64,000 nucleotides of DNA from Nitrosopumilaceae archaeon (GCA_965214835.1 CBDCCK010000002.1:2016001-2080000), one strand, 5' to 3'. Shown: positions 1 through 19,825, counted from the first letter of the stretch. A program made the numbers and translations. Notes: generated from the letters alone by a model not told the origin.

Positions 1-347
1 CGCAGGTAATCGGCTGGGCCACCCCGGTTTTCAGCCATGCCCAAATCATCTTGCAACAAGATTCGTGCCTGCATGTTGCAACGACCTTGACCTCTCACAG
101 GTGCAGTCTTCCCAGATATGACTCACGGATGCACCGGAGGATGGTGTTCGGACAGCATGCTGGGCAGCGGTGAGGTCGGGATCGCACGGATAAGTGATTG
201 TCCAAGCTGGGCACTACGTGCATGACGTAGATCAAGGCGGCCAGGGCGAGCCGTTGCCTGCCGGGATAGCTGTGCATCCATAGTCTGCAGCGGCCGTGCA
301 GGACAGCGTGTGCCGGCACGCCCACATGTGGCGTACCATGTGCCGGC

Positions 348-1760
348 TCACCTGCCGCTCTGGGACGGGTCGGACAGCCTTCCGATGAACAGTATGTTGC
401 CCGTCTCCATGTCCTGTATGACAAAGACAAACGGGTGGTTTGCTGTAAACGTCGGAGGCCCTGACGAACTAGATGCTATTATAGTTGTGGCCCCGGCCTC
501 CGTCCCCTTTTCGTTTACGTTTATGAATGCCTTGTGGACTGCGTCTGACACGTACAGCTGCCCGTCCCCGGCGATGCCAGAAAGGTCGGCCCTCTCACCA
601 AAGATCGAGGTCACGCCCATCGCGGACAGATCCTCTTTTAGGTCGTATGAGACATCAAGGCTGAATCTTGGAAAATAGACCTGCAGTGTTTTCCATGCAA
701 GATCCCCCTTCCACTCCTTGAGGTTCTTGGCACTTAGCAGCCCCTCCAGCTCGCCTATCCCACCCTTTTCGTTTGGCAGCAGCACGAGCATGGAGATGCG
801 GTCGCCCACGTACGGCATCTCAAGGATCTGGTGCGTGCCCACGTTTGCGTGCCTGTAGCCAACATCCTTTGTGTACATCATCGGAACCGTTACCTTTTTG
901 TCGGGGGTCGCCCAGAACGGGTAGTCCTCGATGGTACTGCCTCCGCCAAACGTGTTCACCCAGTCGCCCTTGAAGTATACTGTATTCGTTATGACCAGCG
1001 GCGTTGCGGCGCCGACGGAGCCGGGCGCCATGACCTCTTTTATCCTGCCGCCGGTGTTATCTGACACCCACCCGTTAATCGTCTTGACCGCGTCACCGGA
1101 TCCAAAGTCCACCCTCTCCACGCCGCTGTCGTAGTATATCCTTGCGGTCTGCACGTACTCCTCTAACGGCTCGAGCCACTCTGCAAGCCACAACGCGTTT
1201 GCAACCGACAGCCGGTACTCTGTGTCGGGCCTGTTCAGATCCACCATTGCCGAGCCAAACTGCAGGCGTTTTTCCTCCGGAAACCCGAATGCATCTGTGA
1301 GCTCGTCCCTCGTGTCTCCTCCCGCCCCCTCGTGTACTAGCGCAAAGGCGCCAGTGATGCTCCACGGCGAGAATACGATGTTTGTGCCCTCCTGCCCGGC
1401 GGCGCGGGAATAAAAGTCGACTGCAAAGCCGTTGTTTGCGGCCACGATCCCAGCATAGTCCGAAATCTCGGCTGGCATCAGGCCGCCTGCCTGCAGCAGC
1501 AGGTGCGTGGACTCGGCGGTACCGGCATCCGGCACGGTTACGGCCCACCCCTTCCTTTCTGCAGTGCTCTCACTCACGCACACGGCGCCGCCGGCGCCGC
1601 GCACGACCAGCGCGAGCCCCTCCCTGCACAGGACCCCGTCGGGAGAGACGCCGGCCGCAAGCTGCTTTAGCGGGGGCGGCACATCCGCGTGTGCGGCTGC
1701 GGTAAATGCCACTGCTGCCAGAGCGAGAAAGAGTCCTGTTGCGGCAAAGCGTCTGATCAT
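348..1760 (-). CDS. Secreted serpin (serine protease inhibitor) with N-terminal thaumarchaeal PPLKQ..C..C domain
   Basis: Signal peptide ending AHA; serpin motifs NIVFSPWSI, NTVYFKGDW, hinge/RCL VNEKGTEAGATT and FTANHPFVFVI..ILFIGR. Confidence 0.93.
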   Translation of the reverse strand: MIRRFAATGLFLALAAVAFTAAAHADVPPPLKQLAAGVSPDGVLCREGLALVVRGAGGAVCVSESTAERKGWAVTVPDAGTAESTHLLLQAGGLMPAEISDYAGIVAANNGFAVDFYSRAAGQEGTNIVFSPWSITGAFALVHEGAGGDTRDELTDAFGFPEEKRLQFGSAMVDLNRPDTEYRLSVANALWLAEWLEPLEEYVQTARIYYDSGVERVDFGSGDAVKTINGWVSDNTGGRIKEVMAPGSVGAATPLVITNTVYFKGDWVNTFGGGSTIEDYPFWATPDKKVTVPMMYTKDVGYRHANVGTHQILEMPYVGDRISMLVLLPNEKGGIGELEGLLSAKNLKEWKGDLAWKTLQVYFPRFSLDVSYDLKEDLSAMGVTSIFGERADLSGIAGDGQLYVSDAVHKAFINVNEKGTEAGATTIIASSSSGPPTFTANHPFVFVIQDMETGNILFIGRLSDPSQSGR

Positions 1761-1944
1761 GGCAGAACTACAGGCATGTCGCTAAAAAGTCTGTTGCCGT
1801 AACAGCTCGCTCTGGAAGCGTTCCTGATTTTAGGCACAAATTATACTCGATCGGGATCCTCCGGGATGACAAAATTCACGCCTGAACTTCCATAGTCCGA
1901 GATCTTACAAATAGAAGTGTTGTTTTTGTTTGTTGTTGTGGTAC

Positions 1945-2066
1945 CATCTAAGCGAAATGTGCTGAAAAAATCTGGCAAAAACGGAAAACAACAGCAAGAA
2001 ACGTGCCTCAAATCATGCACAATAACAAGACAGAAACAATAACTTCATCCACATTTCGCTTAGCTG
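1945..2066. mobile_element. MITE family A, copy 1
   Basis: Terminal inverted repeats catctaagcgaaatgtg / cacatttcgcttagctg around a non-coding A-rich interior; related copies at 9983, 27039, 32693. Confidence 0.7.
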
Positions 2067-2105
2067 ATGAAGAAAAAAATTTAGTAAAAGTCAACTTTCG
2101 TTCAA

Positions 2106-3065
2106 CTATTGTGACTCTTCTTCCAGTAACAGTCTAGTTTTGCCAATACCCACAGATGAAAAACTAGGATTGTTTTTGAGAGGATCTGCGTGTAGGATTG
2201 TAAAAGAGTTTGGATGTTTTTTCCAAAATAAATACAATCCAAGTGCCTGAGGTTTTGTCCCCATCGGAACGACTGTCCATCTAAATTTGGTTAGTGAATA
2301 TTTCTGACGGATGCCTTCCAGAGTATTGATGACATTATTTATGATGGTTGGATCTGCATGCTTGAGATTATTTTTGCCAACCATTTTCAATAAGGTATTG
2401 TTCATTCTTTCAGTTTTTCCTTCCCAAGAAGGATAGAAAGCAGGTTTCGGAACCACCAATACTGCTTCATCAGGCTCACAGAAATTGTGTATCGCTTTTG
2501 CCCGATCTCCTTCATATCCTAAAAACTCAAGCAATAACAGCGGAAGACTAGGCGAAGTGTTCCCAATAAATTCTCCCACCGCTTGAATGTCTCCTATTCC
2601 AATAGACATAGGCAAATACAAATCCGTTTTGTAATTCAATGGCTCGGTATAGTAAATTCTAATATTTCCCCATAATTCTACATCATCCAACGTTTTCAAT
2701 AAAATTAGCAGATTTTTGACTGGGATTGTAGAGATATCCAAGACAACTTTAGGGCGGTCATATTTGTCACTTGAACAGGCACAGAATTCTATGATGGAAC
2801 CCATTGGTTTGTTTTCGGATGCAACAATTTCCCGATATGTCGCTGATCTTGATTTCAAAATCTTTCTCATTTTTTCAAGATTGTCTTTTGTTTCAGTTTT
2901 TTCAGAATCAAAAACAAATACAAAACTATCCTTAAACTTTACCCTTTCGTCAAATTTTGAGGAAATTCCCAAACATCGATCTTCGTAGTTTACTGATGTG
3001 ATGAATATATCGTCTGGAGAGTCTTGTAAATTTTTTACTGTGTCTATTAATGAATTGTTTGACAT
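2106..3065 (-). CDS. Hypothetical partner of the ORC/CDC6-like ATPase, possibly tandem CARF-like Rossmann domains
   Basis: 319 aa AT-rich ORF starting 2 bp after the ATPase stop; two motifs reminiscent of the CARF strand-loop-helix (VVLDISTIPVK, VVPMGTKPQALG). Fold call is inference. Confidence 0.6.
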   Translation of the reverse strand: MSNNSLIDTVKNLQDSPDDIFITSVNYEDRCLGISSKFDERVKFKDSFVFVFDSEKTETKDNLEKMRKILKSRSATYREIVASENKPMGSIIEFCACSSDKYDRPKVVLDISTIPVKNLLILLKTLDDVELWGNIRIYYTEPLNYKTDLYLPMSIGIGDIQAVGEFIGNTSPSLPLLLLEFLGYEGDRAKAIHNFCEPDEAVLVVPKPAFYPSWEGKTERMNNTLLKMVGKNNLKHADPTIINNVINTLEGIRQKYSLTKFRWTVVPMGTKPQALGLYLFWKKHPNSFTILHADPLKNNPSFSSVGIGKTRLLLEEESQ

Positions 3066-4616
3066 TTTTATTCGCCAAAAAAGTCAGTAATACTTCCAAG
3101 TTCTTTTGTTCTTGCCACTTTTCTTAATTTGTCTATGAGTTCTTTTTTGGTTTGTTTTTGCGTTCCTGATTCCAATAATCCTTTGAAACTATTGCAGTTT
3201 ATCGGGTATGAAGACATGGGTCTTGGTGAGATTTTCAATGTCTGAGCGTAAATTCTATTTAGAACATAATCATATGACGAAGTGCCATATCCTGGTTTTC
3301 CACGCCTTCCCAATCTGCTTCCATGTTCATGAAAAATAGAGTACATGACACAGGTGTCTATGATCTCCTGCAAGGTATGCCCAATTTCGCAGTTTGGAAG
3401 AATTACTTTTAGGCCCAACTCATCAGGATTTGGGATTGAGATCAGTGATGATTCTGGCTCGTAAAAATGAGTGATCAATTTTTCACGTAGTATGTCTCCC
3501 AAGTCATTTACAAACTTTAGGATTGCACGGCCTACAACAGGAATATCTTGAATATCCCACAAGTGATAGTCGGATATTTGCTCTATGGCTTTAGTTTGAT
3601 TTTTGTATGAAATTTTCTGCCCTTGTTTTGGTTCAATCTTGTCCCTAATGGCAAAAATATACGCCATGCCACATAATTCAACAAATATGCGAAGATTTCC
3701 TGAAGAAAAAGTAACAAAATCACCAAACCCCGCATATGATTTTGCTTTATTCTTGGATAATCGGTATTCTGCGGAAACTCCATAATGCGAATACAAATAG
3801 TCTAATTGGGTTTGGGTTAAACTATCCCAGGGTTTCTTACTGGCATAATATAATGATTTTATTTCCGCCATGATTTTTTCTTTGGTAAATCCATCTAGTG
3901 TTTTGGAATTTGTTTTGAAATAATCTCCCCTGTCTTCCAGAATTTCCTCAATATTACAATTCACAAACCCTGATTCTTTCATGATTTTTTCACAAATTTT
4001 TTTTACATGGTTTGCAAATCTCTTTTTTTGTTCAGAGTCTGATATATCAAAATCCATGTCTACTTTTTCATAATCGTGAATTTCTTGCAATGGCTGATTT
4101 TCCAGGGTTTGAGATTCATTGAATGCTGTTTTTTTAGCCGCAATTTTAAACGTGTATGATGTGCCTTCATTGAACTTCACAAGAGTGTTTAGTACAATTT
4201 TTTGGTTATCGTTAAAATTTTCATACTCATCAATTAAAAAACAAATGTAACGATTCTTTAATTCGGGAACTGCTTCAATAATTTGTTTGCACATAAAATC
4301 TAATGCTTCTTGATCTAAAGATTTTACGGTGTATTCTGCTTTTGTTTTTCTAATTTTTCCCCGAACATAATCTGTAATCTGGCTAATTTGTTCATGTATG
4401 GATAATTCAGTCGAGGCAAAAGTGGTAGTTTTTTCAGGTAGGCGTAATGAACTAGAAATGATTTTAGATATTTTTTCTTCAATGGAATCGTCAATTGTAG
4501 GGATTTTGTTTTTTCTGCAATCTTTTAGTTCAGATAATATTGATTGCCCCAATCTTAAAATCAATTGGTCTATGAAAATTATTTTTGATTCCGATGAATC
4601 GATAGTGTCTGTTTCT

Positions 4617-4680
4617 TCAGATAGCGAATAGGTCCCTCTTGAGGCTCGTCAGATAGCGAATAGGTCCCTCTTGAGGCTCG
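4617..4680. repeat. Perfect 32-bp tandem duplication causing a frameshift
   Basis: tcagatagcgaataggtccctcttgaggctcg x2. Confidence 0.97.
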
Positions 4681-5362
4681 TTGATAGACTCCAAAATATG
4701 GGATTTTTGGATCATTGAATGATTCTACAGAATTAATTGAGGTGATAAACGGTGCACGAACAGATTTTAGCAACATGGTTTTTCCAGACCCTCTTCCTCC
4801 TTCTATGAAAGTGGGTTTGGGGGAAATCATTTGATCATATGTTTTTTCAGGATCTTCGAATAAATTTACAAACGTTGCAGCATCTGTAAAATTTTCTGCT
4901 CTAATTCTCCAAAAAGGGTTTTGATTTTCAATATCAAAAATTTCAGAGTATAGTTTATCAGATGTTTCTGGGGGAGTTAAAGACTCTACAAGTTTTGATA
5001 TTGCATCACCGTATTCTTTATCATCAAATCTTGAAAATAGTTTGTCTTGTAGCATCGTAGAAATTCTAATTGGCATCTGTTTTTTCACTTCGTCATATTC
5101 TTCATATGGCGGAATTATTGGGATTACTCCAAATCGAGGTTCTTCGATTTCTTTAACAACTGCGATGGATAATTCTTTATTGCACCAAGGACTGTTTAGA
5201 AAATCCTTTGTAATTACTGCAGCCAAATAATCAGACGTTCCTAATTCTTCAAATAACATGCCAAAAGAATCTCCACCTTCCAAGACTCTTTTATCAAATC
5301 TTAATCTTAACCGTGTTTTTTCACCTAGATCTTCAACTAACTTATCAACAAATGCACTGTCT

Positions 5363-6602
5363 TAGTTTGTTGCATAACTCCGACTAGAGCCAAGTCGTTC
5401 CGCCCGGATCACTACCGGCACCAGGTTCCTACATGGCAGCCACCGCCTCTGCGATCCACTTGTTGTACAGCCATATCCTCAGCTTTACCTCCTGCACCAC
5501 ATTGGACCACTTGAGGGCCATTACGCCCTCGCCGAACATGCGCTTTATGGACGATATCACGATCTCGATGATCCATCTACTGCCAAAGCCGACCGTACTC
5601 TTCCAGTACCGCAGGTTCTCCTGTCTTTCCTCCTTTGAGAGATCACCCACCGGCACCTCGGGGCCGCCCCCAAGCTGCCATCGCACCAGCTGGCCCCACT
5701 TGTCGCCGGTGCCCTTGCCCTTTGCAGTACAGCTTGTCAAGAGCCGTATGAGTGGTTTTATGCCGCGCTTGTGGCACTCGGCTACGTTCTTCCTTGAACC
5801 GTATGCGCCGTCTGCAAGCAGGATCTTTCCCGGCGTATCAGGATTCGCGCCGGTGTCAAGCAGGGTCATCGGCGAGATCCCATCTGCAAGCATGTTGGGA
5901 ATCTTGACTGCGTCTGCGCCGTCGGTGCGTTCCTGCTGCTGCTGCTCCTCTTCCTTGATGTTCTTGGTCGCCTCCTCAAGCAGTGTCGGCAGTTCCGTGC
6001 TGTCGCCGACTGCGTCACTTGTGACAGATACTGCCAGTACCTGCTTGGTGTCTGCGTCGACCATCAGGTGCATCTTGACAAATCCGCGCCTTACCTTCCA
6101 TTTCTTGCATATCCACTCGCCCCGGTTGTGCTGCTTGAGGCCCGTGGCATCGGCTATCATGACCAGGTTGCGGGACTTGTCGCGCACCGTGATTACATGC
6201 TCTGCAATGTCGACGTCAAGCTTTTGTATTCTCCTGAATATCGTGGTATAACACGGTGAGTCTGCGCCCTTTAGCATCTCCTCGAACATGCCTGACAGCT
6301 GCCTGTACTGTACCATGAATGCGGTCCTGAGGGCGGCTGCGGCCATTATCATGCCTTCTGCATACAGGAACGGGGCGCCCTCCTTGTGACGGTTGGCATC
6401 CTTGAGATCCTTCTCCCATTCCGGGTTGTACTTGACGACTAGGCCTGCCCCCCTCTTTACGTACTTTGCATTGTCTGTTTGTGTCAATGTATACCATACG
6501 AGGCATCCTCATGATCCATTACTTTTTCGGTAAGGATTAGTTGATCATTTTGGTGATTTTTAGTCAGATTTCAAATTTTAGGAAGGGTTATGCAACAAAC
6601 TA
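5363..6602 (-). mobile_element. IS5-family insertion sequence (IS903-like ends), intact
   Basis: 16-bp perfect TIR tagtttgttgcataac / gttatgcaacaaacta; 8-bp TSD cactgtct at 5355-5362 and 6603-6610. Confidence 0.95.
5429..6487 (-). CDS. IS5-family DDE transposase
   Basis: IADATGLK, GFVKMHLMVD, LLADGAYGS, RWIIEIVISSIKRMFG motifs. Confidence 0.93.
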   Translation of the reverse strand: MTQTDNAKYVKRGAGLVVKYNPEWEKDLKDANRHKEGAPFLYAEGMIMAAAALRTAFMVQYRQLSGMFEEMLKGADSPCYTTIFRRIQKLDVDIAEHVITVRDKSRNLVMIADATGLKQHNRGEWICKKWKVRRGFVKMHLMVDADTKQVLAVSVTSDAVGDSTELPTLLEEATKNIKEEEQQQQERTDGADAVKIPNMLADGISPMTLLDTGANPDTPGKILLADGAYGSRKNVAECHKRGIKPLIRLLTSCTAKGKGTGDKWGQLVRWQLGGGPEVPVGDLSKEERQENLRYWKSTVGFGSRWIIEIVISSIKRMFGEGVMALKWSNVVQEVKLRIWLYNKWIAEAVAAM

Positions 6603-6991
6603 CACTGTCTTTATTACTATATGTGACAAAAACCGTGGCCATGATTAGCAGGGATGCACTGCAGATTTAAAATTTTCATTTCATGTGAGGATAATACTGC
6701 AGATGTTTTCTAGTCCTCGATTTCGTAACCGTAAGGCATATGTCCGCAATCAGTGCAGACATAATCATCATCATTTTCATTCCATTAAATCTCCATTTCA
6801 TAGCAAATTGGAGCAGAAATCCAGAGTCATTATAGCAACGCGCAAAAGTCTTTGAGTCAAAACATGGTCAGATTGCCCGTGAAAAACCTCAATTATTTGT
6901 GAGCGTTGCTATACATTTCAAAAATTACTTTTCTAGGCCTGATTCTTTTATTCCACGATTTTTATTAACCGCAACATAACAAAATTTACGA

Positions 6992-7105
6992 ATGCAGGAA
7001 GATGCAGGAGGATGTGAAATTGTTTTTACTATCTATGCAGGAAATGTGAAGTTCATGATCTATTATACTGCAGGATCTATTAATATGCAGGAAGATGTAG
7101 GATAG
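6992..7105 (+). promoter_or_regulatory. Cluster of five TGCAGGA direct repeats upstream of the PAPS-reductase-like gene
   Basis: atgcaggaagatg, atgcaggagg, atgcaggaaatg, ctgcaggatc, atgcaggaagatg within ~110 bp. Confidence 0.5.
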
Positions 7106-7879
7106 ATGTTAGTACAAGAAAGAATTTCGGATTCAAGAGGCATCAAGCGGCAAGCAGATGCAAAGTATATTGTAAGTTATGGCGGCGGAGTAAACTCTAC
7201 AGCATTAATTGTATTTTTGGTCAAGAACAAATTCCCTCTTGATTATGTCGTGTTTTCAGATACTGGTGATGAAATGCCCGAAACATATGAGTATCTTGAT
7301 GTTATTAAGAGGTATCTTAAACGAAGAGACATTCCATTTGAAATTGTAAAGAATAGAAAAAAAGAGGCGCTATCTGACAAATGTCTAAGACGTGGAGTGG
7401 TTCCCTCTCAAGTATGGCGTTGGTGTACTAGAGACTTCAAAGTTTTGCCAATTCATGCGTTTTATAGAAAATTACAATCACACGTCTACCAGTACATGGG
7501 AATCGATTATGGCGAAGTTCACAGAATGAAACCTGCCAAAGTAGATTATGTAACTAATCTGTACCCATTAGTTGATTACAAAATAGGCAGAAAAGAATGC
7601 ATAAGTCTAATCAAAAAGGTGAGACTTCCAATTCCAGTGAAAAGTGGGTGCTATATGTGTCCATTCAACAACATGGAAAGATGGGCCGAGATTTATGAGA
7701 AACATCCAGACTTGTACAAGTATGCCGTGAAGATTGAAGAGCAAAGCAAGCATTTTGGTAAACAGCACCTAGCACCAAAAGGTTACACACTAAGAAAGCT
7801 TGGTAAAATCATGAAAAAGAATAAGAAATTGCCAATGGTTCAGGTTGAGAGCCCCTGCGGCAGTGAATGCATGATCTAG
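7106..7879 (+). CDS. PAPS-reductase/DndC-like PP-loop protein with Cys motifs
   Basis: SYGGGVNS PP-loop, FSDTGDEMPETY, RWCT, KSGCYMCPF, C-terminal CGSEC. Confidence 0.85.
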   Translation: MLVQERISDSRGIKRQADAKYIVSYGGGVNSTALIVFLVKNKFPLDYVVFSDTGDEMPETYEYLDVIKRYLKRRDIPFEIVKNRKKEALSDKCLRRGVVPSQVWRWCTRDFKVLPIHAFYRKLQSHVYQYMGIDYGEVHRMKPAKVDYVTNLYPLVDYKIGRKECISLIKKVRLPIPVKSGCYMCPFNNMERWAEIYEKHPDLYKYAVKIEEQSKHFGKQHLAPKGYTLRKLGKIMKKNKKLPMVQVESPCGSECMI

Positions 7880-8415
7880 TCCTTCAGATCCTTCTTCAGG
7901 ATTTCTAACGCTCTATCATGGATTGTTTGCTTGTGCTTTTTTGCTGATTTTAATAGTTTTTTCTGCAATTCATTTGAAATTGGCAATGCCAGAACAATTG
8001 TTTTGGATAATTGCGAATCTTCAAATATTTTTTGGGATTCTTTGACTGGCATTGTGGGGTTCTTTTTAAGGAAATACACAAAATCCCTAATCTCATCCCG
8101 ATTCAAGTTTTTAATTATCTCGAACGCCTGAGTGCGTTGTTTTGGATCTATGCGTGTTAATTGATATGCCGTAGTCATGCCTATTTTTCCATCATTTGCC
8201 AGTTTTTTAAAATTGGTATCCAGATCATTTATCTTGTCTATTTCTCTTAACTGGGTGATGGAAACGTTAAAAAAACTTGCCATTTTTTTGAACCCCCAGT
8301 CGCTGTGTTTTTTTAAGGTTCTGCATGCCAATGCAAAATCAGTGATTTTTGACGGTTTTTTTTTTGAGCCTTTGAGGTTGGCAACCAAGAGTGCGATCGC
8401 TTTCTCTTCATTCAT
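7876..8415 (-). CDS. HTH protein resembling the C-terminal half of ParB
   Basis: Overlaps the parB-like stop (ATGA); helical HTH-like segment and GKIGMTTAYQL similar to ParB/KorB HTH region. Confidence 0.6.
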   Translation of the reverse strand: MNEEKAIALLVANLKGSKKKPSKITDFALACRTLKKHSDWGFKKMASFFNVSITQLREIDKINDLDTNFKKLANDGKIGMTTAYQLTRIDPKQRTQAFEIIKNLNRDEIRDFVYFLKKNPTMPVKESQKIFEDSQLSKTIVLALPISNELQKKLLKSAKKHKQTIHDRALEILKKDLKD

Positions 8416-9236
8416 CGGTTTTCTCCACTTTCATACTCTCTGATCCGCTCAAGTAACATTTCCGTAGCTATGTCCTCTTTTGTGGACAATCTCACACTTG
8501 CGATCTTTTCAATGGTTTTTGATTTTCTGTTTGGCAGAAGTATGGTATATTGGACTCCCTCTTCAATTGTTTTGGCGGCTTCACGTATATCTCCCACCGT
8601 ATCTGTTTTTCTGGCCGCGTCGATTGCAAATGATATACTACGACGTTTTTTCTTTTCGGTCAGCGGTATGCTTGCAAGCTCATTGGCAATTTTGATTACC
8701 TTTGCCTCATCAACAAACTTGGAGAAAATGTCAACAGCTTTTGTACTGCTAATTTTTTTCTGGGCCACCAGTGCTTTTACTTCGTCAGGTAGTGCATCAT
8801 ATCCCAAGTAGCGTTTTATTGTAGATATGTCTACGCCCAATGCGGCAGCCACCTTTTCCCTGCTCTTGAAGTGTCTCAATAGTTGCTTTGCGGCATTTGA
8901 TTTGTCTTTGTAATCCATGGATAAACTATAAAGGTTTTCGCTCAAAGAAAGAACTCGGGCATCTGCAAGCTTGATTCCTTCGAAAACAAAACAGGGAATC
9001 TTTTGTTTGCCTGCCTTTGCACATGCCATCAATCTGCGCTGGCCACTAAAGACCCCGTACTTTCCTCTGGCATTTTTCCCCTTAACCAACAATGGAACAC
9101 GTAATCCATTCTGCTTGATGTTATTGGACAATTCATCGATGTTCTCCATTGGGTCATGCTTTCTGACATTTGCATCCTCCCACAACTCCAAACTATCAAT
9201 GTCAATATATTGGAGTTTTTGACTTTCATCAATCAT
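8412..9236 (-). CDS. ParB/Srx N-terminal domain + HTH protein
   Basis: NVRK..IDELSNNIKQNGLRVPLLV, SGQRRLMAC, SLSENL, VAAALGVDISTIKRYL. Confidence 0.88.
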   Translation of the reverse strand: MIDESQKLQYIDIDSLELWEDANVRKHDPMENIDELSNNIKQNGLRVPLLVKGKNARGKYGVFSGQRRLMACAKAGKQKIPCFVFEGIKLADARVLSLSENLYSLSMDYKDKSNAAKQLLRHFKSREKVAAALGVDISTIKRYLGYDALPDEVKALVAQKKISSTKAVDIFSKFVDEAKVIKIANELASIPLTEKKKRRSISFAIDAARKTDTVGDIREAAKTIEEGVQYTILLPNRKSKTIEKIASVRLSTKEDIATEMLLERIREYESGENR

Positions 9237-9801
9237 GTTGTATCGTACATCCCATTTTTTCTAATGTTTTTTCGATATTGCTTGGCTCACATAATTGTAA
9301 CTTATCTGAAACTCCTTCATTTTTCAATATTGCATTACCGTGTTTTAAAAAGTGCTTATCGGATGTAATTAATACCGACGCATTGGCCTCCCATGCGGCA
9401 GCCAAATGAATGATGTCTGGTGCAAAAATGCTTGTTTTTGTGGCTATGTGCAGTGCCAGATCCCATCCTTCCGAAGTTAATGACACGGGCTTGATAAATG
9501 GATATTTCACAAACAGCTCTAAAAATTTGTCCTTTATGTTTTTCATCGTTTCGGCAGGCAGCTCAATTTGTGAGCGCTGGCGGCATATTGTGTTGTATTC
9601 CAAACCCTCACTTCTTTTCTTAGACACAAAACTGTCTGCTTGTTCTATGTCTAGCATTTCCATAAATGTAAAAATAGAAGTGTAACACTTCCATGATCTC
9701 TTTCTGATTCTTTCAACCCAGTAGATTGAGTTGTGATTTCGATTATTAGTATTATCCCTAACGATGTTGGTATCTATGTAGAATATGGGATCAGGCATCA
9801 T
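9229..9801 (-). CDS. PIN-domain ribonuclease (VapC-like)
   Basis: FYIDTNI, TFMEM, PDIIHLAAA, LITSDKHF. Confidence 0.85.
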   Translation of the reverse strand: MMPDPIFYIDTNIVRDNTNNRNHNSIYWVERIRKRSWKCYTSIFTFMEMLDIEQADSFVSKKRSEGLEYNTICRQRSQIELPAETMKNIKDKFLELFVKYPFIKPVSLTSEGWDLALHIATKTSIFAPDIIHLAAAWEANASVLITSDKHFLKHGNAILKNEGVSDKLQLCEPSNIEKTLEKMGCTIQHD

Positions 9802-9982
9802 CTTTCAGATTGACCTTTACTATATTTGGTTTTCTTTCTATAATTCTGAATGAAATTTTTTTATGTTCGTTTGGAAATTTTAAGTTTAACGAATCGTTTT
9901 TTCGTTCTGTATTTTTAAATCCTACTTGCTTTTTCATGACATTTTATGTATGCTGCTAGATTAAATAATTTTTCACACATCT

Positions 9983-10086
9983 CAGCTAAGTGAAAAGTAC
10001 ACCAGTCAGGTAGAAAGCCAAGGAATTCAGACCGTTCTAACAACACTTGCAGATGCAAACTGATCAATTACGGTTCGACCCAGCGG
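9983..10086. mobile_element. MITE family A, degenerate copy 2
   Basis: Left end cagctaagtgaaaagtac identical to the copy at 27039; right end eroded. Confidence 0.55.
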
Positions 10087-10486
10087 TTTTCATTGATCAA
10101 ACAAAAATCCAAACAGTGCCGCGATCTTGAGAACAGCCCACGCATATATGAACATGCTGCAGAGGGCGGGATTGTCAAAAAATTTTCCGCAGGCTGCCAG
10201 TCTGCCCTCGGATGTGGGCAACTTCAAACGTAGCACAGGACATTTTTGGCCAGCCATACGCAAAAGGCAACGCAAATATCCATGCGGGCATGCCTTACGG
10301 TAGTACTGCGATCCGACAACGATGCAGGATTTGCAATAAACGATACCGTGAGGTTGTCTCATATGGGAACTGCATAAAGTGGGACAGTTGCCACATAACG
10401 CTGCCATTCAAAAGTAAACTGATTTACAAGTTGAGTCTGATTGAAGACATTGATCTTTTGGAAAAATAATCACTTGCAAAACAAGA

Positions 10487-11374
10487 TCATTCAATCTTTC
10501 CATTAAAATGGGTAAAAGACGAAACGGGCTCTTTTATTTCTCCATATTTTTCTTCCACAACGCTTAACATTTTTTCAGCATGTTGGTAGTCAATCTGCAA
10601 CACACCTTTAGCATATCTGGCATCAGGCCGTAATCCGAATAATTTGTTATGTACTGTAATGAAAGGCTCTTCATCGTTTTTTTGTATTCTTTTGTATTGA
10701 GCAATTTTAGACGAATGGCTTTTTATTTTTTTAGCATGTAAGAAAAACAACAGAATTATGTCAACTATTAATTCAGACGCACTAAATAGGTTATCAACAA
10801 ACGCAGAATAATGTTTGTTTTCTAGTGCGAATTTAGATGTCTGAATAAACTCATTAATTTTATCGTATTTTTTCTTCATTTCACCTTTCCGTAATCTAAA
10901 ATCAAATGAGATGATCCAAGATTTCTTATGTCCAAGCATGATGATATACGCGTCGTTTTCTTGTATTACTTCAGGTTTTTGGCAAATTTCTACATATTTA
11001 GATATGTCATCTTCGTATACCGGATCGTGTTTTTTCAGTCTATTTTTTCCAGTTAATTTTGCTTTTACAATAAGCTTAGTCTCTTTGTTAAACAGTACTT
11101 GGTGCTTTTCATCAGGTGGGAATCGGATCAGGATTGCGCGGGGCATTTCATATGTTGTTTTATTTTCGTCTTTTAGTCTGCGTTTAATTTCAGGCTCCAG
11201 CCACAACTGCCAAATTTGATCAAACAAATTCTGTGCGCCTTGACCATCATCTAATGAAAGACTATCACCCAACAATGATTTGTGTCGTGTTTGAATACTA
11301 AAAACTTTGTAGTAATTCAGCAGACCAGTATCCATGTGAATTCTTTTTAAGCATTTTCCTGGATTTCGTGACAT
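10487..11374 (-). CDS. Protein with C-terminal HEPN domain (start uncertain)
   Basis: C-terminal helical region AFVDNLFSASEL..KSHSSKI..LRPDARY matches the HEPN pattern. Confidence 0.65.
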   Translation of the reverse strand: MSRNPGKCLKRIHMDTGLLNYYKVFSIQTRHKSLLGDSLSLDDGQGAQNLFDQIWQLWLEPEIKRRLKDENKTTYEMPRAILIRFPPDEKHQVLFNKETKLIVKAKLTGKNRLKKHDPVYEDDISKYVEICQKPEVIQENDAYIIMLGHKKSWIISFDFRLRKGEMKKKYDKINEFIQTSKFALENKHYSAFVDNLFSASELIVDIILLFFLHAKKIKSHSSKIAQYKRIQKNDEEPFITVHNKLFGLRPDARYAKGVLQIDYQHAEKMLSVVEEKYGEIKEPVSSFTHFNGKIE

Positions 11375-11529
11375 GGTGCATGGCTTTCGCTAGGGTTGAT
11401 CCACTTCCAAAGGATGGGCGGACACGTATCCATTCGGGGCTTTCCCCCAGTACCATCTTCATCCATTCGTTAGGCGATCCCGCAGTTACTTCCCCGAGGC
11501 ATTATCCTCATACTGATAACGCGGTAAAT

Positions 11530-12800
11530 TCCTAACCATGATCCATTTGAAACGTTTCATGCCGTCGGGTGCAAGCATATCCTATAAGATCATTGGGTGG
11601 GTGGGTGGGGGCTAGGGGGCGGACACCCATGCCATGACCGCACCATGCAGGGTCATCCCACCATCCCCGCAGTGCAGTACATACGGTCACAGCCATTCTA
11701 CGAACTTCCTGTTCTCCTTTAGCATCCAGTAGATGACCCGCAGCAGCTTGGCGGCGGTTGCCACGGTGGCCTTGGAGGTTCCCCTGCTCTTGGCAAGCCG
11801 CTTGTAGAATCTCGTAATGCTGCTGTTGGGCGCACACCTTACATGCGTGTGCACTACCTCGACGAGCGCCCACCGCAGCATGTTGCTTCCCCGCTTGGTT
11901 ATGCGCCCGTGGTATACCTTGTCTGCAGAGTTGCGCACCGACGGGACGATCCCCGCATTCGCGCACAGTTTGTGGGAGTCCGGAAACCTTTCAATGTCGC
12001 CTATCTCAGCTATTGCAACCAGTGCAGTGTACTGCCCCATCCCGGGGATCGACGTGAGAAGCTGCGCACCGGGGCTCTCATCGACTGCCTTGCGTATCAT
12101 CATGTCGGCCTTTGCAACCTCCACGTTCTGCATGTCTATCTCCCTCAGGTAGGAGTCTATCCTATAGTCATGCATGTCCTTGAGCTCTGCCACGTGTGCG
12201 GGCGAGAACGGATACGGCGCCTTGCTCTTGAATCCGGCCTGCAGTGTTATGCCGTGGATCAGGTTCTTCATCCTGGTCCTGACCCTCACTATCTTGTTCC
12301 GGTGTCTGGTCAGCTGCCTGTGGTGTACGATCCTCTCATCGGGGACATAGCATTTGGCTATGTATCCGCCCCGCAGCAGCTCGGCAAGCTTGTGCGCGTC
12401 TATCCTGTCCGTCTTCTTCAGGGATGCCGCTATCATCTTGGTGGCGTACGGGTTTGACAGAACCACGTCCAGCTTGAGGATATCAGTCATGTACCGGTAC
12501 AGCCCGTACCACACAGAGGAGGACTCTGACGTACTTTGCCTTCTTTGGGATCTTCGAGACGGCCTCTGATACTGATTCAAAGTCGCTTGAGATCTTCTTG
12601 TTGGACAGGAGCTTTCCGTCCCCGTCAATCGTTGCCATCTGGACGGATTCCTTGTGAACGTCCAGTCCCACGTATATCATGCCCTTACTACGTCGATGGG
12701 TAATGAGTTTGTTTGCCTTCCCTGATGCCTTCCTGGGCTTTGGCGTATCAGTGGAGGTACCACCTGATCGCCGCACTTTCGATGTCTTCACATATGGTTA
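11530..12800 (-). mobile_element. IS110-family element (IS1111-like layout; boundaries approximate)
   Basis: IS110 transposase followed by a long GC-rich non-coding 3' region; no TSD or long TIR seen. Confidence 0.7.
11687..12680 (-). pseudogene. IS110 transposase, frameshifted near 12530
   Basis: MIYVGLDVHK (DEDD N-terminus) shifts frame at AKYV/ESSSVW; KTDRIDA, LTSIPGMG, GIVPSVRNSA, ITKRGSNMLRWAL, VATAAKLLRVIY. Confidence 0.9.
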
Positions 12801-12809
12801 CTTCCTAGG

Positions 12810-12939
12810 GGAGTTGTCGCCTAATTCGCCAGAATTCCTGAAAACCGTTGAGATACCACGTGGATCAGGCGTGCAAAAGGGCGGAAATTCAGAAAAGCGT
12901 GCAGGTTGAGTCAAACAAGTGGAATTAGGCGACAACCCC
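12810..12939. mobile_element. MITE family B, 130 bp
   Basis: TIR gttgtcgcctaattc / gaattaggcgacaac; direct repeat cttcctagg on both flanks; homolog at 63540. Confidence 0.88.
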
Positions 12940-12949
12940 CTTCCTAGGT

Positions 12950-13201
12950 GTACTTTTACAGACGACGACGCGCAAGAAAGGAAGAATAGCCCATATGCCA
13001 GATACAGGCTGTCAATGTACGGCATACTGTACTGCGTTGACGTGTTGGAACCTACCAGAAAGGAGACGGACAGCATGGTCAAGCAGTACGCGTTCCTACT
13101 GCCACGAGCAGTTGCACAAGTGGTACGAGGATTTTTTCAGGCAGGCCAAGAACTACTATGCCGAGCGGGTGCGGGCAATGAGGGGATCTGGGATTTTTTG
13201 A
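12950..13201 (+). pseudogene. Internally deleted remnant of a paralog of 16181..17071
   Basis: YRLSMYGILYCVD vs YRLSLHGILYCLD; WYEDFFRQAK vs WYRGFFDEAR, in different frames. Confidence 0.8.
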
Positions 13202-13222
13202 AGGATGTCTTAGTTAGCCCAT

Positions 13223-13298
13223 TAGACTTTATGCGTAATCGACCAATCTGATCTAAAAATTCAACACAACAGATCATGATTTGCATACGTACAACCTA
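13223..13298. mobile_element. MITE family C, degenerate copy
   Basis: Left end tagactttatgcgtaatcga shared with copies at 29376, 53172, 62674. Confidence 0.6.
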
Positions 13299-13330
13299 AA
13301 GATCAGTAATGGTTCTTTGACGGTATGGGT

Positions 13331-13531
13331 TCAGATGCCAAAATGCGCCCATGGCTTTCTTTCGGGATGGAGATAGCACTGGAGGCGCTCGCTCCATTCC
13401 AGCGTAGACAGATCAATGCCCCCGAAGGTCACCGCATCAGACGGCCATATGCACGGACCTCCAAGATGCCCGTATACCAAAAAGGCAAGCATCATCCTGC
13501 CGTATGTCAGCCCCATGAAAAAACCCAGCAT
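13331..13531 (-). CDS. Small hydrophobic protein downstream of secreted precursor 1
   Basis: ATG at 13531 (MLGFFMGLTY...), hydrophobic N-half, same position as small membrane ORFs in the other two cassettes. Confidence 0.4.
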   Translation of the reverse strand: MLGFFMGLTYGRMMLAFLVYGHLGGPCIWPSDAVTFGGIDLSTLEWSERLQCYLHPERKPWAHFGI

Positions 13532-13559
13532 GGTTCCTAAAATTAAAAAAAGATAAGGC

Positions 13560-14423
13560 CTAGTAGTACTCATGCCACCACGGAACATACAATCCCCAAT
13601 AAGGAGATGGCCATACATATGACAGTAATTCTGGATTCGGTTCTTCATCTTGGACGGTGTATGAAAAATCGCCGTTAATTCCGGCATGATCGCGAAACGC
13701 GCCCGTATCACAAAGTCCGCCATAATTGCTGCTTGCTACAACCTTGGTGAATTCATACGGTTGTGATGCCGCACCATTCCAAGCTGCATATTCGGGCACC
13801 ATGTGAAACCCCCGATCCTCCAGGATTTGCTGCGTGCTACTTAGAGAATCTCCACCGTAGTGAGTGGACGGATTCGGATCCGATAGGTGTGGATCCAGAA
13901 AGTTGCCTCCACACCAAGTAGGCCATGCACCATGATGCACTGGCACTATTTTGTCACTCAATATGCTGGGCGTTGCGCTCAGGGTAGTGCCGACAGAACC
14001 GTCATTGTCGTCATCAAACAGTTTTCTGAACTCACCTGATCGAAAATCTGATATGATATCGCCAATTCTTTGATCGGTGCCGGTTTGTGATTCATTTACC
14101 TGCCCTACAGGTCCCACCACATCCATAACCCTGTCATTATACGATGCATATCTTTGTGCTATCTGGATGTCTAACTCGCTAACATAGGGATCGTTTTGAG
14201 AGGATGTTATGTCAATGTCAAAATGATAATCCGAATCTATCAAGATGTGTCTTTCCATGACATTAAACATCTGAAGAATGTCAGATTTTTCATATGCCGT
14301 AGTTTTTTGCGTGTCGTCTTCAATGCCTCCCGGAGCTTCTTGTGCCACTGCATTTGTCACTCCTACAGGAGCCAGTAGTGCTAGTACCAAGAGAGGCATT
14401 ATGGATGTTGTTTTGCTGTTCAT
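13560..14423 (-). CDS. Secreted protein 1 (signal peptide, acidic pro-like region, Cys/Trp/His-rich C-terminus)
   Basis: MNSKTTSIMPLLVLALLAPVGVTNAVA signal; ATG lies just after the shared promoter element. Confidence 0.8.
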   Translation of the reverse strand: MNSKTTSIMPLLVLALLAPVGVTNAVAQEAPGGIEDDTQKTTAYEKSDILQMFNVMERHILIDSDYHFDIDITSSQNDPYVSELDIQIAQRYASYNDRVMDVVGPVGQVNESQTGTDQRIGDIISDFRSGEFRKLFDDDNDGSVGTTLSATPSILSDKIVPVHHGAWPTWCGGNFLDPHLSDPNPSTHYGGDSLSSTQQILEDRGFHMVPEYAAWNGAASQPYEFTKVVASSNYGGLCDTGAFRDHAGINGDFSYTVQDEEPNPELLSYVWPSPYWGLYVPWWHEYY

Positions 14424-14520
14424 GTTCTCACCAGTCACTACGCACCTTCGTTATATAACAATTGATATCGGTTTGCGGCATGCTTCTTTTTTCGGGGCCG
14501 GGACGCCCAAAGCGCCGAAA
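14424..14520 (-). promoter_or_regulatory. Shared promoter element, copy 1
   Basis: Reverse complement reads gaaaaaaagaagcatgccgcaaaccgatatcaattgttatataacgaagg...gagaacATG; near-identical to 17113 and 20084 copies; TATA-like tatataa. Confidence 0.85.
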
Positions 14521-14560
14521 ACCGGCAAGAATTTTTACCATCCCGGATACACATACCTTG

Positions 14561-15808
14561 ATGAAGGCGGTCCACAAGGTGACGGTACTGGTAGCGCTGC
14601 AGGTGGCCATGATACTTGCGAGCTTTCTGATAATCATACACCTCGAGTCCCAGACGGCGCTCACCGGCAACATCGTAAACGTTGCCGGAAAGAACAGGGT
14701 CCTTGCCAGCGCGGTCCTGGTGGAGCTGAACCACGTGCTGTTTCACAACCAGACGCAGGACGCGGTGTCAGGATCGCTGGATGCCCTGCATGAGAACATC
14801 CGGTTTCTAAAGTCTGGGGGAACGTCATCGCAGCTGGAGATAGCCCCGCTCTCGCCACGGTTTGCAGGGGACTGGGACCGCATACGGGAAAAGGCGTCCC
14901 AGTACGGATCCCAGGTTCGCGCGCTGATGGGGCAGGATGCGGTGCGTTACCGGGACATCGAGGGGATAGAACAGACGGCCAGGGAGCTTACCGAGATCTC
15001 AGACGCCCTCACAGAGAGGCTGGGCCGCGACGTCGATGCGCTGTCATCCCAGCTTGTGGCACTGCAGGCGGTGCTTGGTGTCATCAACGCGGCCTCGCAC
15101 TTGCTGGTGATCTGGGTGGTGTGGAGGATTCTTGACAGGCATGCACAGCAGATGGCCGTGGCCGAGAGGATGGCCGTCCTAGGCGAGTTTACAGCAGTCA
15201 TGGCGCACAACCTGAAAAACCCGCTGGCTGCCATAATGAACGCCTCCAACAGGATCCGGACACACGGCGGCGGCCACGCAATCATAGGCGGCGAGGCAGA
15301 CAGGATAGACAGGTGTGCTGCCCGCATGTCGCAGCAGATCGACGGTGTGATGAGCTATGTGCGGACCAGGCCGCCGTCCATGGAGGAGTGCTCCGTGCTG
15401 GAGATGCTGGGGCAGGCAGCGGACATGGTGCAGATTCCGGGCAACGTGGATCTGATGGCACCCGAAGGCGACGTGACGGTACGGTGCGACCGAGAGGGAA
15501 TGCAGACGGTCTTTGCCAACCTGATACAAAACGCGGTGCAGGCCATCGGCGCCTCTGCCGGACACGTCACGGTCAGGTGCGAGGAAGGCGGCGGCCACAT
15601 CACCATAACGTTTGAGAACTCGGGGCCGCCCATACCCAAAGGCGACCTGGACAGGATATTCGAGCCGCTGTACACCACGAAGATCCGGGGGACCGGACTG
15701 GGCCTTGCCGGCTGCAGGAACATACTGGAGGCCCACGGCGCGACGATTGCAGCATGCAACGATCCGGTAACATTTACAATACGCCTTGAAAAACATCATG
15801 ACACATGA
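14561..15808 (+). CDS. Membrane sensor histidine kinase (NarX/PilJ-like sensor region)
   Basis: Two TM segments, VNVAGKNR P-box-like motif, H-box AHNLKNPL, N-box NLIQNAVQA, G-boxes; start uncertain (ORF open from 14462). Confidence 0.92.
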   Translation: MKAVHKVTVLVALQVAMILASFLIIIHLESQTALTGNIVNVAGKNRVLASAVLVELNHVLFHNQTQDAVSGSLDALHENIRFLKSGGTSSQLEIAPLSPRFAGDWDRIREKASQYGSQVRALMGQDAVRYRDIEGIEQTARELTEISDALTERLGRDVDALSSQLVALQAVLGVINAASHLLVIWVVWRILDRHAQQMAVAERMAVLGEFTAVMAHNLKNPLAAIMNASNRIRTHGGGHAIIGGEADRIDRCAARMSQQIDGVMSYVRTRPPSMEECSVLEMLGQAADMVQIPGNVDLMAPEGDVTVRCDREGMQTVFANLIQNAVQAIGASAGHVTVRCEEGGGHITITFENSGPPIPKGDLDRIFEPLYTTKIRGTGLGLAGCRNILEAHGATIAACNDPVTFTIRLEKHHDT

Positions 15809-16173
15809 CGGGGACCAAGAAGATCCTGGTGGTGGACGACGATTACGATGTGCTCGAGTCGTGCCTGCTCATGCTTGCCGACGAGGGGCACCACGTCATC
15901 GGCGCCTCAAACGGCTCGGAGGCCGTAGAAAAATACTTTGAGTTCGAGCCGGACATCGTGTTCATGGACATACGCATGCCTGGCATGGACGGATACGAGG
16001 CGTTCCTCAGGATCCACAGGCGCGACGGCGATGCGCGCGTCGTCTTCACGTCAAGCTACGCGCTGGACGAGCAGAGGCACGAGCACGTGCGGGGCATCGC
16101 ATCGGTGGGGATGATCGACAAGCCCGTGGCATGGCGCGACCTCAAGCGGATGATGGGAAGGCATTCCAGGTGA
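15805..16173 (+). CDS. Single-domain response regulator receiver
   Basis: ILVVDDD, PDIVFMDIRMPGMDG, KP; overlaps the kinase stop. Confidence 0.93.
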   Translation: MTGTKKILVVDDDYDVLESCLLMLADEGHHVIGASNGSEAVEKYFEFEPDIVFMDIRMPGMDGYEAFLRIHRRDGDARVVFTSSYALDEQRHEHVRGIASVGMIDKPVAWRDLKRMMGRHSR

Positions 16174-16180
16174 CGCTGTC

Positions 16181-17071
16181 TCACGGAGGGGTGCCAGAGT
16201 TCATGGCTGCGAGTCTTTTTTTGCAGTGATCCCTTGCCTCGTCAAAAAATCCCCTGTACCACGCGCGCATCTCCGGGTTCCTCTCAAACACCCTCCTGGT
16301 CCGCCCCGCGGCGTTCCTCCTTGCCTGCACGGATCTGGACGGGTGCGTATGGTACAGGAGGTAGGTGTAAAACCAGTACGATATCTGCTCTGCCAGATCG
16401 GACTCGGATATGACCTCAAAGTTCCTCCTGTACTTTGTGTGCACGAACGACATCAGCTCGTGTACCGGGCCGTCGGCGCGTCCTGCCGCGGGCGTGTCCA
16501 GAAACAGGGCCTGGGAGAGCACCCGCAGGCAGTACACGTTGTCCCCCAGCGCGGACTTTAACTCGTTCCACATTCCAAATATCCTAGGAAGCGTGCCCGC
16601 ATACGCCGATGCCATCCTGTCCATGCCGTTCCCGTCAAGGTTCATCGCGTCAAGGCAGTACAGGATGCCGTGCAGCGAAAGCCTGTACGCCCAAGAATTC
16701 TTCCTGCCTATCGTCTTTTTCTCCCTTACGGCCAGCCCCGTGTCCAGGATGCCGCCGGTGTACCGGCCCCTGTCGCGCCGCCCCACAAAGAACCGCCGGT
16801 ACTCCCTCTCCTTCTTCCGGACGTCGTTTATGTTGCGGAGCTCCAGCCTTGCCATGTCCCACGTGGTGCACGCGCCATGGGCCGCCAGCAGTCCCAGCAT
16901 GTGCTGCACGCTGCTCTGGTACTCTGTCCTCGTCTTTGCAAAATGGCCGCATCGCGAACGCGCCATGGGCCTTGTATAGATCTTGTACGACATGAGGTTG
17001 CCGTAGCCGTGCCAGTCCTCCATCAAGGGGGGCATGGCATGTCCCGTATTTTTTCCTATGTGTCCGCGCAT
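16181..17071 (-). CDS. Thaumarchaeal hypothetical protein, possibly a wHTH-type regulator
   Basis: 296 aa ORF with TTWDMA...YRLSLHGILYCLD; paralog remnant at 12950; start uncertain. Confidence 0.7.
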   Translation of the reverse strand: MRGHIGKNTGHAMPPLMEDWHGYGNLMSYKIYTRPMARSRCGHFAKTRTEYQSSVQHMLGLLAAHGACTTWDMARLELRNINDVRKKEREYRRFFVGRRDRGRYTGGILDTGLAVREKKTIGRKNSWAYRLSLHGILYCLDAMNLDGNGMDRMASAYAGTLPRIFGMWNELKSALGDNVYCLRVLSQALFLDTPAAGRADGPVHELMSFVHTKYRRNFEVISESDLAEQISYWFYTYLLYHTHPSRSVQARRNAAGRTRRVFERNPEMRAWYRGFFDEARDHCKKRLAAMNSGTPP

Positions 17072-17112
17072 GATGCAAGGATATTCCCCGCCGGATCACC
17101 TTTGCCCTGCCG

Positions 17113-17254
17113 GTCACGGACTTACAGCACATGCCCGATCTGCCGGTCAGGCGGCTTTTGGCGCCCCGGCGCCCCCGGCCTAGAAAAAAAAGAAGCATGC
17201 CACAAACCGATATCAATTGCTATATAACGAAGGCGCGTAGTGACTGGTGAGAAC
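17113..17254 (+). promoter_or_regulatory. Shared promoter element, copy 2
   Basis: ~140 bp nearly identical to 20084-20225; contains caattgctatataac. Confidence 0.88.
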
Positions 17255-17565
17255 ATGAACAAAAAAATAAGAAATGCAATACCGTTTCTTGTGCTGGTGC
17301 TTCTGATTCCAATCGGGCTAGCTAATGCACAAGAAATACCAGGACAAAACGATCCAGCCCAAGAGCCAAGCCAAACAGAATCCATCTATGATCCAGTCAT
17401 GGTTCAATACATGAAGGAGTTAACCGCTGATCCGGGAAAAACGGTAACCGAACGGCTTATTGCAAACCAAACAGTAATAGGTTAGCCCCTGCCTAGAGTT
17501 AAAGTCACACCCACCGTCTTTTCAGGCATGAAAATCACAACTGCAGGCAGATTAGTGCAGGATTG

Positions 17566-19155: not shown

Positions 19156-19825
19156 GTATTTCCCGGGTAATGATAGTTTATAGATCAGGTGGTCAGAAAA
19201 AATCAACTAGGCAGGGGCTAACCTATTACACCAAACATACTCTGTCACAACAATAGTGCGTGAAATTACCGATGATAAATATGCAGTAAAGTCCGTAACC
19301 AGGATTGACGGCGAAAAAATTTCCTCTGAAAAATTCAGGATGACGGCAATTGACAACTCAACCTACAAACTGGTAAACAACGGTCTGGGCATACGCCAGG
19401 TTTTCACCGACATTCCCAGTGAAGTGGCAGGTGCAGGTTCGGGATCCTCGACGCCCAACAACGCAAGAATTGATCTGTATGATGGAGAGCATGGCACGCC
19501 GCACACATTGACACTGCATGACAACTATTCCGGATGTGCGACGCTTAACCAGGCTGTATTTCAGGCACCTGTAAGGCCAGACACCGTTGATGTGACATGG
19601 GAGGCAAGCCCGTTTTACATGCACTGGTGCTTTATCCCCCACGAGTTCCAACAGGGTGAGGTTAGACACGGAACCGAAACCGTGTTTTTGAACGGCCATG
19701 GCGATCGAAGAGGCAGCCATGCGTTTGACAATCCTCATGTGGGCACAACTTGGTATAGTGTAGAGGCGGATTTCGAATACGGTGTGTGGTAACACATACT
19801 GACGCATTCTTTTTTTTATCCTAGG

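Follow-up and report, generated by a model that had tools for sequence, protein, structure and literature searches.

Near the left end of a 64,000-nucleotide stretch from a Nitrosopumilaceae archaeon (GCA_965214835.1, CBDCCK010000002.1:2016001-2080000; the whole of this stretch is called "the window", and positions are counted from its first letter) lie two genes read from the minus strand. One of these, broken in two places, would encode a TIR domain joined to an ATPase of the ORC/Cdc6-like kind. The other, intact, encodes a protein with two CARF domains in tandem. A preliminary description of this DNA had recognized the broken gene in three fragments, and had proposed that the pair forms a two-gene sensor/effector module for immunity in an archaeon. 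The features of the locus are collected in Table 1.

Table 1. Features of the locus and of the edges of the island that holds it, as positions in the window (a dot marks features without a strand; IS, insertion sequence).
Feature	Positions	Strand	Basis or remark
Piece A: start codon (6642-6640) and start of the first TIR strand	6611..6642	-	sequence, read-through, alignment with N-termini of intact homologs
Piece B: remaining TIR (WCNKE, Glu 74) and ATPase start with Walker A	4678..5362	-	stop-to-stop frame 4579-5361
Piece C: ORC/Cdc6-like ATPase body and C-terminal region, stop 3068-3070	3068..4645	-	stop-to-stop frame 3068-4648
Intact CARF6-type partner gene, 319 codons	2106-3065	-	begins 2 nt after ATPase stop 3068-3070
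IS, 1,240 bp, perfect 16-nt terminal inverted repeats	5363..6602	-	interrupts the gene after codon 13
DDE transposase frame of the IS, 359 codons	5429-6508	-	DDE_Tnp_1 E 1.2e-19
8-bp target-site duplication CACTGTCT	5355-5362 and 6603-6610	.	direct repeats, repeat family D20
Two tandem 32-nt units, 1 mismatch	4614-4645 and 4646-4677	.	extra unit shifts the frame
Short dispersed host-genome repeats	1860..2066	.	41 matches in own genome; inverted repeat I6; GC step at about 2000
IS110-family transposase frame	11687-12628		Transposase_20 E 1.4e-23; right edge of low-GC island

Gene pieces are defined here as stop-to-stop frames, all on the minus strand. As assembled, the TIR-ATPase gene does not give one uninterrupted coding frame, being cut by an insertion sequence (IS) and shifted by a 32-nt duplication. 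When the IS, one target repeat and the 32-nt unit at 4646-4677 are dropped in silico, the three pieces read through as 764 codons with zero internal stops, just as had been described. This read-through holds each of the elements previously listed for it: a TIR domain with its Glu (WCNKE, 70-74), Walker A (GRGSGKT, 200) and Walker B (LIDE, 376) on an ORC/Cdc6-like body, and the SSGNLR..ELC motif (SSGNLR at 553, ELCG at 562). Its first 13 codons, 6642-6604, make the first TIR strand. Piece B matches TIR_2 (PF13676; E 3.2e-10; 41 bits, cut-off 28) and positions 1-81 of PF24389 (E 8.9e-17; 61.5 bits), while piece C matches positions 94-565 of the same 571-position profile (E 2.4e-55; 188.8 bits); both pieces exceed the PF24389 cut-off of 27 bits.

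The same architecture recurs in 16 full-length homologs (750-789 aa, 38-87% identity), which carry TIR and PF24389 and across which Walker A, Walker B and the stretch SSGN.R..ELCG are invariant. This last stretch may resemble the sensor-2 'GDAR..LL' motif of Cdc6/Orc1. The Glu of WCNKE is Glu in 36 of the 37 TIR-class copies that can be aligned there; in an alignment, Glu 74 falls on the Glu of WCLME in the flax L6 TIR. The column is presumably that of the catalytic residue known from the literature on TIR NADases.

Structure work used an intact homolog, the 772-aa P0002 (87% identical), in place of the broken gene; its model has a predicted local distance difference test score (pLDDT) of 79.6. 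Foldseek places the TIR-NLR protein RPP1 at the top of the whole-chain matches (7dfv, E 2.1e-5), and lists further yeast ORC1, archaeal Cdc6/Orc1 (2qby, 1fnn, 2v1u), the BREX protein BrxC (9zdx, E 1.9e-4) and RdrA. In a second fold comparison, the match list for the whole 772-residue model was filled by its TIR domain. The TIR (residues 5-147) aligns with the SPARTA TIR 8qlp at Z 14.9 (rmsd, the root-mean-square deviation, 2.4; 127 aligned), and the ATPase body with the Pyrococcus ATPase 2qen at Z 13.0 (rmsd 5.2; 328 aligned). The AAA part of P0002 also matches a fused 1,187-position model named 'CARF_STK_AAA' (E 2.6e-9), which hints at a fusion that may link the parts of the cassette described below.

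The 319-codon gene said to follow 2 nt downstream is there, and its product is, as had been suspected, a tandem CARF protein. Twelve PADLOC models named 'CARF6--CARF_CARF_CARF' match it, the best at E 7.9e-27. Pfam gives no match for the window protein itself and no fused effector domain; its homologs match CARF_Card1 at 26.7-30 bits (cut-off 24.6) and Csa3_N under its cut-off. The AlphaFold (AF2) model, made with 40 homologs, has a pLDDT of 93.6 and two Rossmann-like halves. Its best structural match is Can1 (6sce, Z 13.3, rmsd 3.7, 236 aligned, residues 18-301). The second half (174-300) matches Can2, Csm6 and Card1 at Z 11-12, and SAVED domains match the whole protein at Z about 9 (Cap5 SAVED, Z 9.6). 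Both halves conserve a Y-E-x-D-R-type turn past the first strand, and each has one motif past the fourth strand, D110-I-S/T-T in one and P-x-G-T-K-P-Q at 267-273 in the other. CARF pockets usually sit at such post-strand positions, and the conserved motifs here are of the pocket type.

This CARF family is large, with 3,043 cluster representatives at E up to 0.001, 1,515 at 1e-10 and 177 at 1e-30; its members are mostly 310-340 aa long and stand alone. In one of them, P0092 (643 aa), the second CARF half of the partner is continued by an N6_N4_Mtase domain; this may be a genuine fusion of CARF and methylase, or else overlapping genes that were read through in gene calling.

A contact between the two proteins is supported by a predicted complex. 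Here, residues 150-772 of P0002 (alignment of 16) were modelled with the window CARF protein (alignment of 40). The median complex score was 0.85, against 0.00 for the best of three controls; in a benchmark, 58 of 80 solved complexes scored that high, as did 2 of 110 mismatched pairs. Three runs agreed in at least 93% of contacts, with a partner pLDDT of at least 85. In P0002 numbering, the predicted contacts involve residues 241-254, 275-283, 324-345 and 608-617 of the ATPase, and in the CARF protein the inter-domain segment 156-174. The CARF protein would thereby sit on the ATPase part, outside the TIR domain. To our knowledge no such complex has been solved, and because of this the result is unlikely to come from the memory of the model. 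It is precisely the predicted contact strand 241-254 that the 32-nt duplication repeats.

The two breaks fared differently when compared with public data. For this, Logan contigs from four public runs of two studies (X1, X2, X3 and X6) were aligned to 1800-6900. At the IS, flanking contigs end about 30 nt within the element on each side, at 5392 and 6573-6574; X1, X6 and X3 list both edges, and X2 the left edge only. No joint across an empty site is reported in the contigs of the four runs. The insertion is independently confirmed by these contigs. Its family has 44 matches in the archaeon's own genome, the nearest full copy being 96% identical, and the IS is therefore a resident element that jumped into foreign DNA. 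Its length of about 1.2 kb and its 8-bp duplication would, we presume, suit the archaeal IS5-type group. The window itself holds a further copy of the family at 61551-62661 (88% identity) and a fragment at 58375-58493.

The second break, the frameshift, is not confirmed. In all four runs, a single contig joins 4616 to 4649, omitting exactly 32 nt, and continues to 5392. The two 32-nt units, with the next four letters, share 33 letters, and the contig table likewise has 33 that fit on either side. The contigs were built with 31-letter words, with which a fixed duplication should form a loop that breaks the contig. That the contigs pass without the second unit means that the duplication is read as absent or rare in those samples. 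A database protein of 727 aa, P0001, is likewise the single-copy form of the read-through, begun at an internal TTG. The second break may thus be an assembly artefact or a private variant, a caution for any reading of this locus that counts two breaks in the assembly.

An ATPase in two frames was also seen at seven other loci (L008, L057, L059, L060, L092 and L097/L099). Broken copies are not rare, and some of those from metagenomes may be sequencing errors.

The neighbourhoods of relatives say what an unbroken locus contains. These were surveyed at 110 ATPase loci, of which 26 and then three more came from genome contigs, 80 from metagenomes and one from a relative of the same order; the three came from a second scan of genome contigs with a near-clade alignment, which gave only these, all distant and TIR-class. 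There is some redundancy in this set, since L005/L041 and L047/L048 are identical and L097/L099 have the same coordinates. Loci were scored with local profiles built from Pfam-checked members. In all 86 loci with at least 900 bp of downstream sequence, the CARF gene comes next after the ATPase gene on the same strand, so that the pairing noticed in the window proved to be a conserved one.

The pair is not, however, the self-contained two-gene module first proposed. A DNA methylase lies within 1 kb in 55 of the 60 loci with at least 1.3 kb on each side (TIR class 20/22, PRTase class 32/34, others 3/4), and a separate effector is often added. Local profiles divide the loci into 66 in which a separate PRTase-CE gene (PF24390) precedes the ATPase, 35 with a TIR fusion, and nine 'other', two of which (L062 and L070) are TIR by Pfam. 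Most bacteria have the separate PRTase-CE effector in place of the TIR. The methylase differs with the class: N6_N4_Mtase-type in the TIR class (MTase_II models, E 1.2e-49), where its gene usually overlaps the CARF stop, and N6_Mtase/Eco57I-type in the PRTase class. The full cassette has four parts: the effector, which is either a fused TIR or a PRTase-CE of its own; an AAA+ ATPase of the ORC/Cdc6-like kind; a protein with tandem CARF domains; and a DNA methyltransferase. It is widespread, occurring sporadically over archaeal and bacterial phyla, from methanogen-type archaea to gut Bacillota; in viral contigs, 600 pattern matches included none that encodes a relative.

Five loci have no methylase within 1 kb: L007, L026 (where one lies 2.6 kb off), L037, L086 and L150. 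Of these L037, which is the protein P0007, is the closest relative of the window copy with a known context (76% identity) and the sole near-clade member for which the context is known; its TIR-ATPase is intact and its Glu kept. In a tree that was a quick one only, the window copy groups with P0002-P0011 and L037 in the starred clades, with L150 elsewhere. At L037 (1547-3444 and 965-1474), two pieces of a protein-primed DNA polymerase B gene and an 8xMP membrane protein gene adjoin the cassette; these neighbours suggest carriage by a mobile element. At L007, from Nitrosopumilus (5692-7893 and 9086-10651), an N-terminal domain of 137 residues, of unassigned family, replaces the TIR; no methylase is nearby, an AlwI-type restriction enzyme gene lies on the opposite strand, and the ATPase weakly matches MADS mad8 (E 4e-8). 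In L026, from Flavobacterium, a 570-codon gene (8852-10564) with an ORC-CDC6-like start and a zinc ribbon stands between the CARF gene and the methylase.

The window lacks the methylase. No homolog was found there by tblastn (all E above 0.5) or by profile hidden Markov models, and no remnant was found beside the CARF gene. Where relatives have their methylase gene, the window has short dispersed repeats of the host genome. These start about 40 nt past the CARF stop, with GC content rising after them, and form the left edge of a low-GC island at about 2000-11500. Within the island GC is 0.31-0.45 (about 0.35), as against 0.55-0.61 (about 0.58) in the left flank; the split TIR-ATPase gene has 0.34, and the IS inside it 0.54. 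Among relatives, the cassette was found in only 2 of the 60 searched, and in none of four genomes of the same genus. Its sporadic presence, together with the low GC, means that this is acquired, foreign DNA. With host repeats at the left and an IS110-type transposase at the right, the island has therefore also been reshaped by mobile DNA. No tRNA gene was found at 1-20000, and hence no integration site of the tRNA type. The recipient is an archaeon, as had been supposed: its genome (3.22 Mb in 2 contigs) has one archaeal small-subunit rRNA with the large-subunit rRNA adjoining.

Several further genes share the island or adjoin it. A PAPS-reductase-like gene at 7106-7879 on the plus strand matches PADLOC SspD (E 3.8e-33) and BrxP (E 1.3e-15); it is followed on the minus strand by a 179-codon gene given no family (7876-8415), a ParB-like gene (8412-9236) and a PIN gene (9229-9801). 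The pairing of PAPS reductase and ParB at 7106-9801 resembles modules of the IbrA/IbrB type. Beside the island, in the high-GC flank, is a serpin gene of 470 codons (348-1760; Serpin E 1.5e-105). In the dispersed-repeat zone at 1965, one of two contigs is 1 letter short in X1 (depth 68.7 of 134.7) and in X6 (41.3 of 82.3), which is either a polymorphism or a repeat copy.

Taken together, we consider it probable that the locus in the window is a copy of a conserved conflict cassette that was gained by horizontal transfer, has decayed and is now dead. In this copy the resident IS stands between most of the gene and its promoter side with the first TIR strand, so the gene described as hidden has been killed and is not a live one. 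Only the CARF gene is whole, the effector is cut and the methylase is lacking; therefore the system is most likely dead.

What the intact cassette does is, of course, a more speculative matter. In the working that we propose, the methylase would mark the cell's own DNA. The ORC/Cdc6-like ATPase, with the CARF protein docked, would survey DNA, and the CARF pocket would read a nucleotide-type ligand. On a foreign signal, ATP-driven assembly would bring TIR domains together (or would activate PRTase-CE), and the assembled TIR domains would destroy NAD+ and so halt the infected cell. A bolder reading, to which we give less than even odds, makes the cassette a methylation-gated suicide switch which depletes NAD+, with the tandem-CARF protein on the ATPase and the methylase as antidote. 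If this is true, selection would act on any copy deprived of its methylase to give up TIR activity as well, and the window locus would be a natural knock-out that records this dependency on the methylase.

The pattern of the Glu residue bears on this proposal. Among methylase-linked TIR copies, 25 of the 25 that can be aligned keep the Glu of WCxxE. Among those without a methylase, the residue is retained in L037, is Asp in L150 (where the first strand has changed too), and belongs in the window to a copy that the IS has broken; the numbers are tiny, the groups were set after looking, and ten further copies, for want of context, fall in neither group.

Several observations weigh against these readings, of the locus and of the cassette. 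The contigs may be compatible with the 32-nt duplication in some cells. The complex score is the confidence of a model in a prediction that was fed author-made alignments. Methylase-like genes elsewhere in the genome (best E 6.5e-8, weak and distant) might serve in place of the missing one, and L037 is intact although neither the 5 kb upstream of it nor the 1.4 kb downstream holds a methylase, so that a nearby methylase is not strictly needed. A methylase may have been lost before or after the IS hit, or this lineage may never have had one. Nor do the parts of the cassette include an obvious maker of a ligand for the CARF protein. The domains, their linkage and the predicted contact are results; every activity, and with it every functional step of the cassette, we infer.

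These points leave room for other explanations of the locus. A remnant might be partly alive, if transcription out of the IS produced the 727-aa ATPase in the form of P0001; with its TIR crippled and no power to kill, this could still pair with the CARF protein and act, for instance, as sensor or decoy. In favour of this, the single-copy form stays open from just past the IS as far as the usual stop, database copies of the intact CARF gene are identical to it, and contact with the CARF protein is predicted for the ATPase part rather than the TIR. Against this, the TTG start of P0001 is the choice of a gene caller only, and the assembled genome carries the frameshift as well; we think such a remnant unlikely. 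It would be more surprising still if the genes had nothing to do with immunity, and instead served an integrated plasmid or virus as an initiator of the ORC/Cdc6 type or as a maintenance module, regulated by the CARF protein. An ORC/Cdc6-like fold, an island with ParB-like and PIN genes and transposases, and the polymerase B pieces adjoining L037 would all fit this. A TIR fusion or PRTase-CE linkage together with a linked DNA methylase suits a conflict system better, however, as do the sporadic spread over archaeal and bacterial phyla and the PADLOC matches to CARF6 and MTase_II; the 600 matches in viral contigs, too, yielded no relative. This reading is accordingly given very little credence.

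The least probable of all is the module as first proposed, a live two-gene TIR-ATPase and CARF sensor/effector with its breaks bridged or absent in the cell, which we would hardly expect. One can point, in its favour, to the 32-nt frameshift missing from the contigs of all four runs, to the unbroken catalytic Glu and Walker motifs, and to L037 and L150, where two-gene forms without the methyltransferase occur. Yet the IS is present in the contigs at both its edges, with no empty-site joint reported, and its insertion deprives the gene of start codon, first TIR strand and upstream region. Further, the pair normally stands, in relatives, within a larger cassette. A dead copy of that cassette is the reading that we retain.

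This copy being dead, its own value is small; it adds an example of a broken copy without methylase. The wider interest is that epigenetic self-marking, a CARF nucleotide sensor found outside CRISPR, and effectors of the TIR or PRTase kind, three themes usually met apart, come together in one cassette. The strong interface predicted between ATPase and CARF protein may guide experiments on intact relatives. The novelty is less than the preliminary description estimated, as the parts are catalogued (Pfam PF24389 and PF24390; PADLOC CARF6 models). In the literature that was searched, the cassette is neither described nor tested; outside the reach of that search lay the CARF classification paper in NAR of 2020 (doi 10.1093/nar/gkaa635), from which the name CARF6 probably comes, and in which CARF6 neighbourhoods may already be described. 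The papers found that use the Pfam names do so, in the portions of their text that were available, in other contexts only.

Single parts of the cassette resemble parts of several known systems. With Thoeris it shares a prokaryotic TIR with a conserved Glu, and there is a weak match to a ThsB model (E 0.0051); here, however, the TIR is fused to an ATPase, and no ThsA-type SLOG/Sir2 or Macro partner was seen. With BREX and MADS it shares the pairing of a DNA methylase with an ORC/Cdc6-like ATPase. BrxC is among the fold matches, the second methylase type of the cassette matches mad2 (E 1.5e-19), and one ATPase, that of L007, matches mad8. MADS reportedly tells self from phage DNA by N6-methyladenine (m6A; PMC13662399). 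PglZ, BrxL and the MAD3/4 nuclease were undetected among the profile matches in the loci; the cassette is much smaller than BREX or MADS, and its effectors are of an NAD or nucleotide kind. Membership in Thoeris, BREX or MADS is rejected, the likeness being limited to single parts.

The tandem CARF protein, a pseudo-dimer, resembles Can1 among the CARF effectors of type III CRISPR (Can1, Can2, Card1, Csm6). Unlike these it has no fused nuclease or other effector domain, and in the loci examined local profiles detect beside its gene those for an ATPase and a methylase rather than cas genes. The TIR-ATPase, in turn, shares with TIR-STAND and TIR-NLR proteins (plant RPP1 and Roq1, and bacterial TIR-ATPases) an N-terminal TIR, at Z 13-15, on a switch-type P-loop ATPase. 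Its ATPase belongs, however, to an ORC/Cdc6-like Pfam family rather than to NB-ARC or NACHT, has no repeat sensor domains, and is linked with both a CARF subunit and a methylase.

There remains the catalogued yet unnamed cassette of PRTase-CE (PF24390), PF24389 ATPase, CARF6 tandem CARF (PADLOC PDLC01910-01923) and methylase. PRTase-CE is itself placed, in the one paper found, beside type III-A retrons. Compared with the PRTase-CE form, the window has a TIR fused at the N-terminus, no methylase and a broken ATPase gene; what the two have in common is the ATPase family, the CARF family and the order of their genes.

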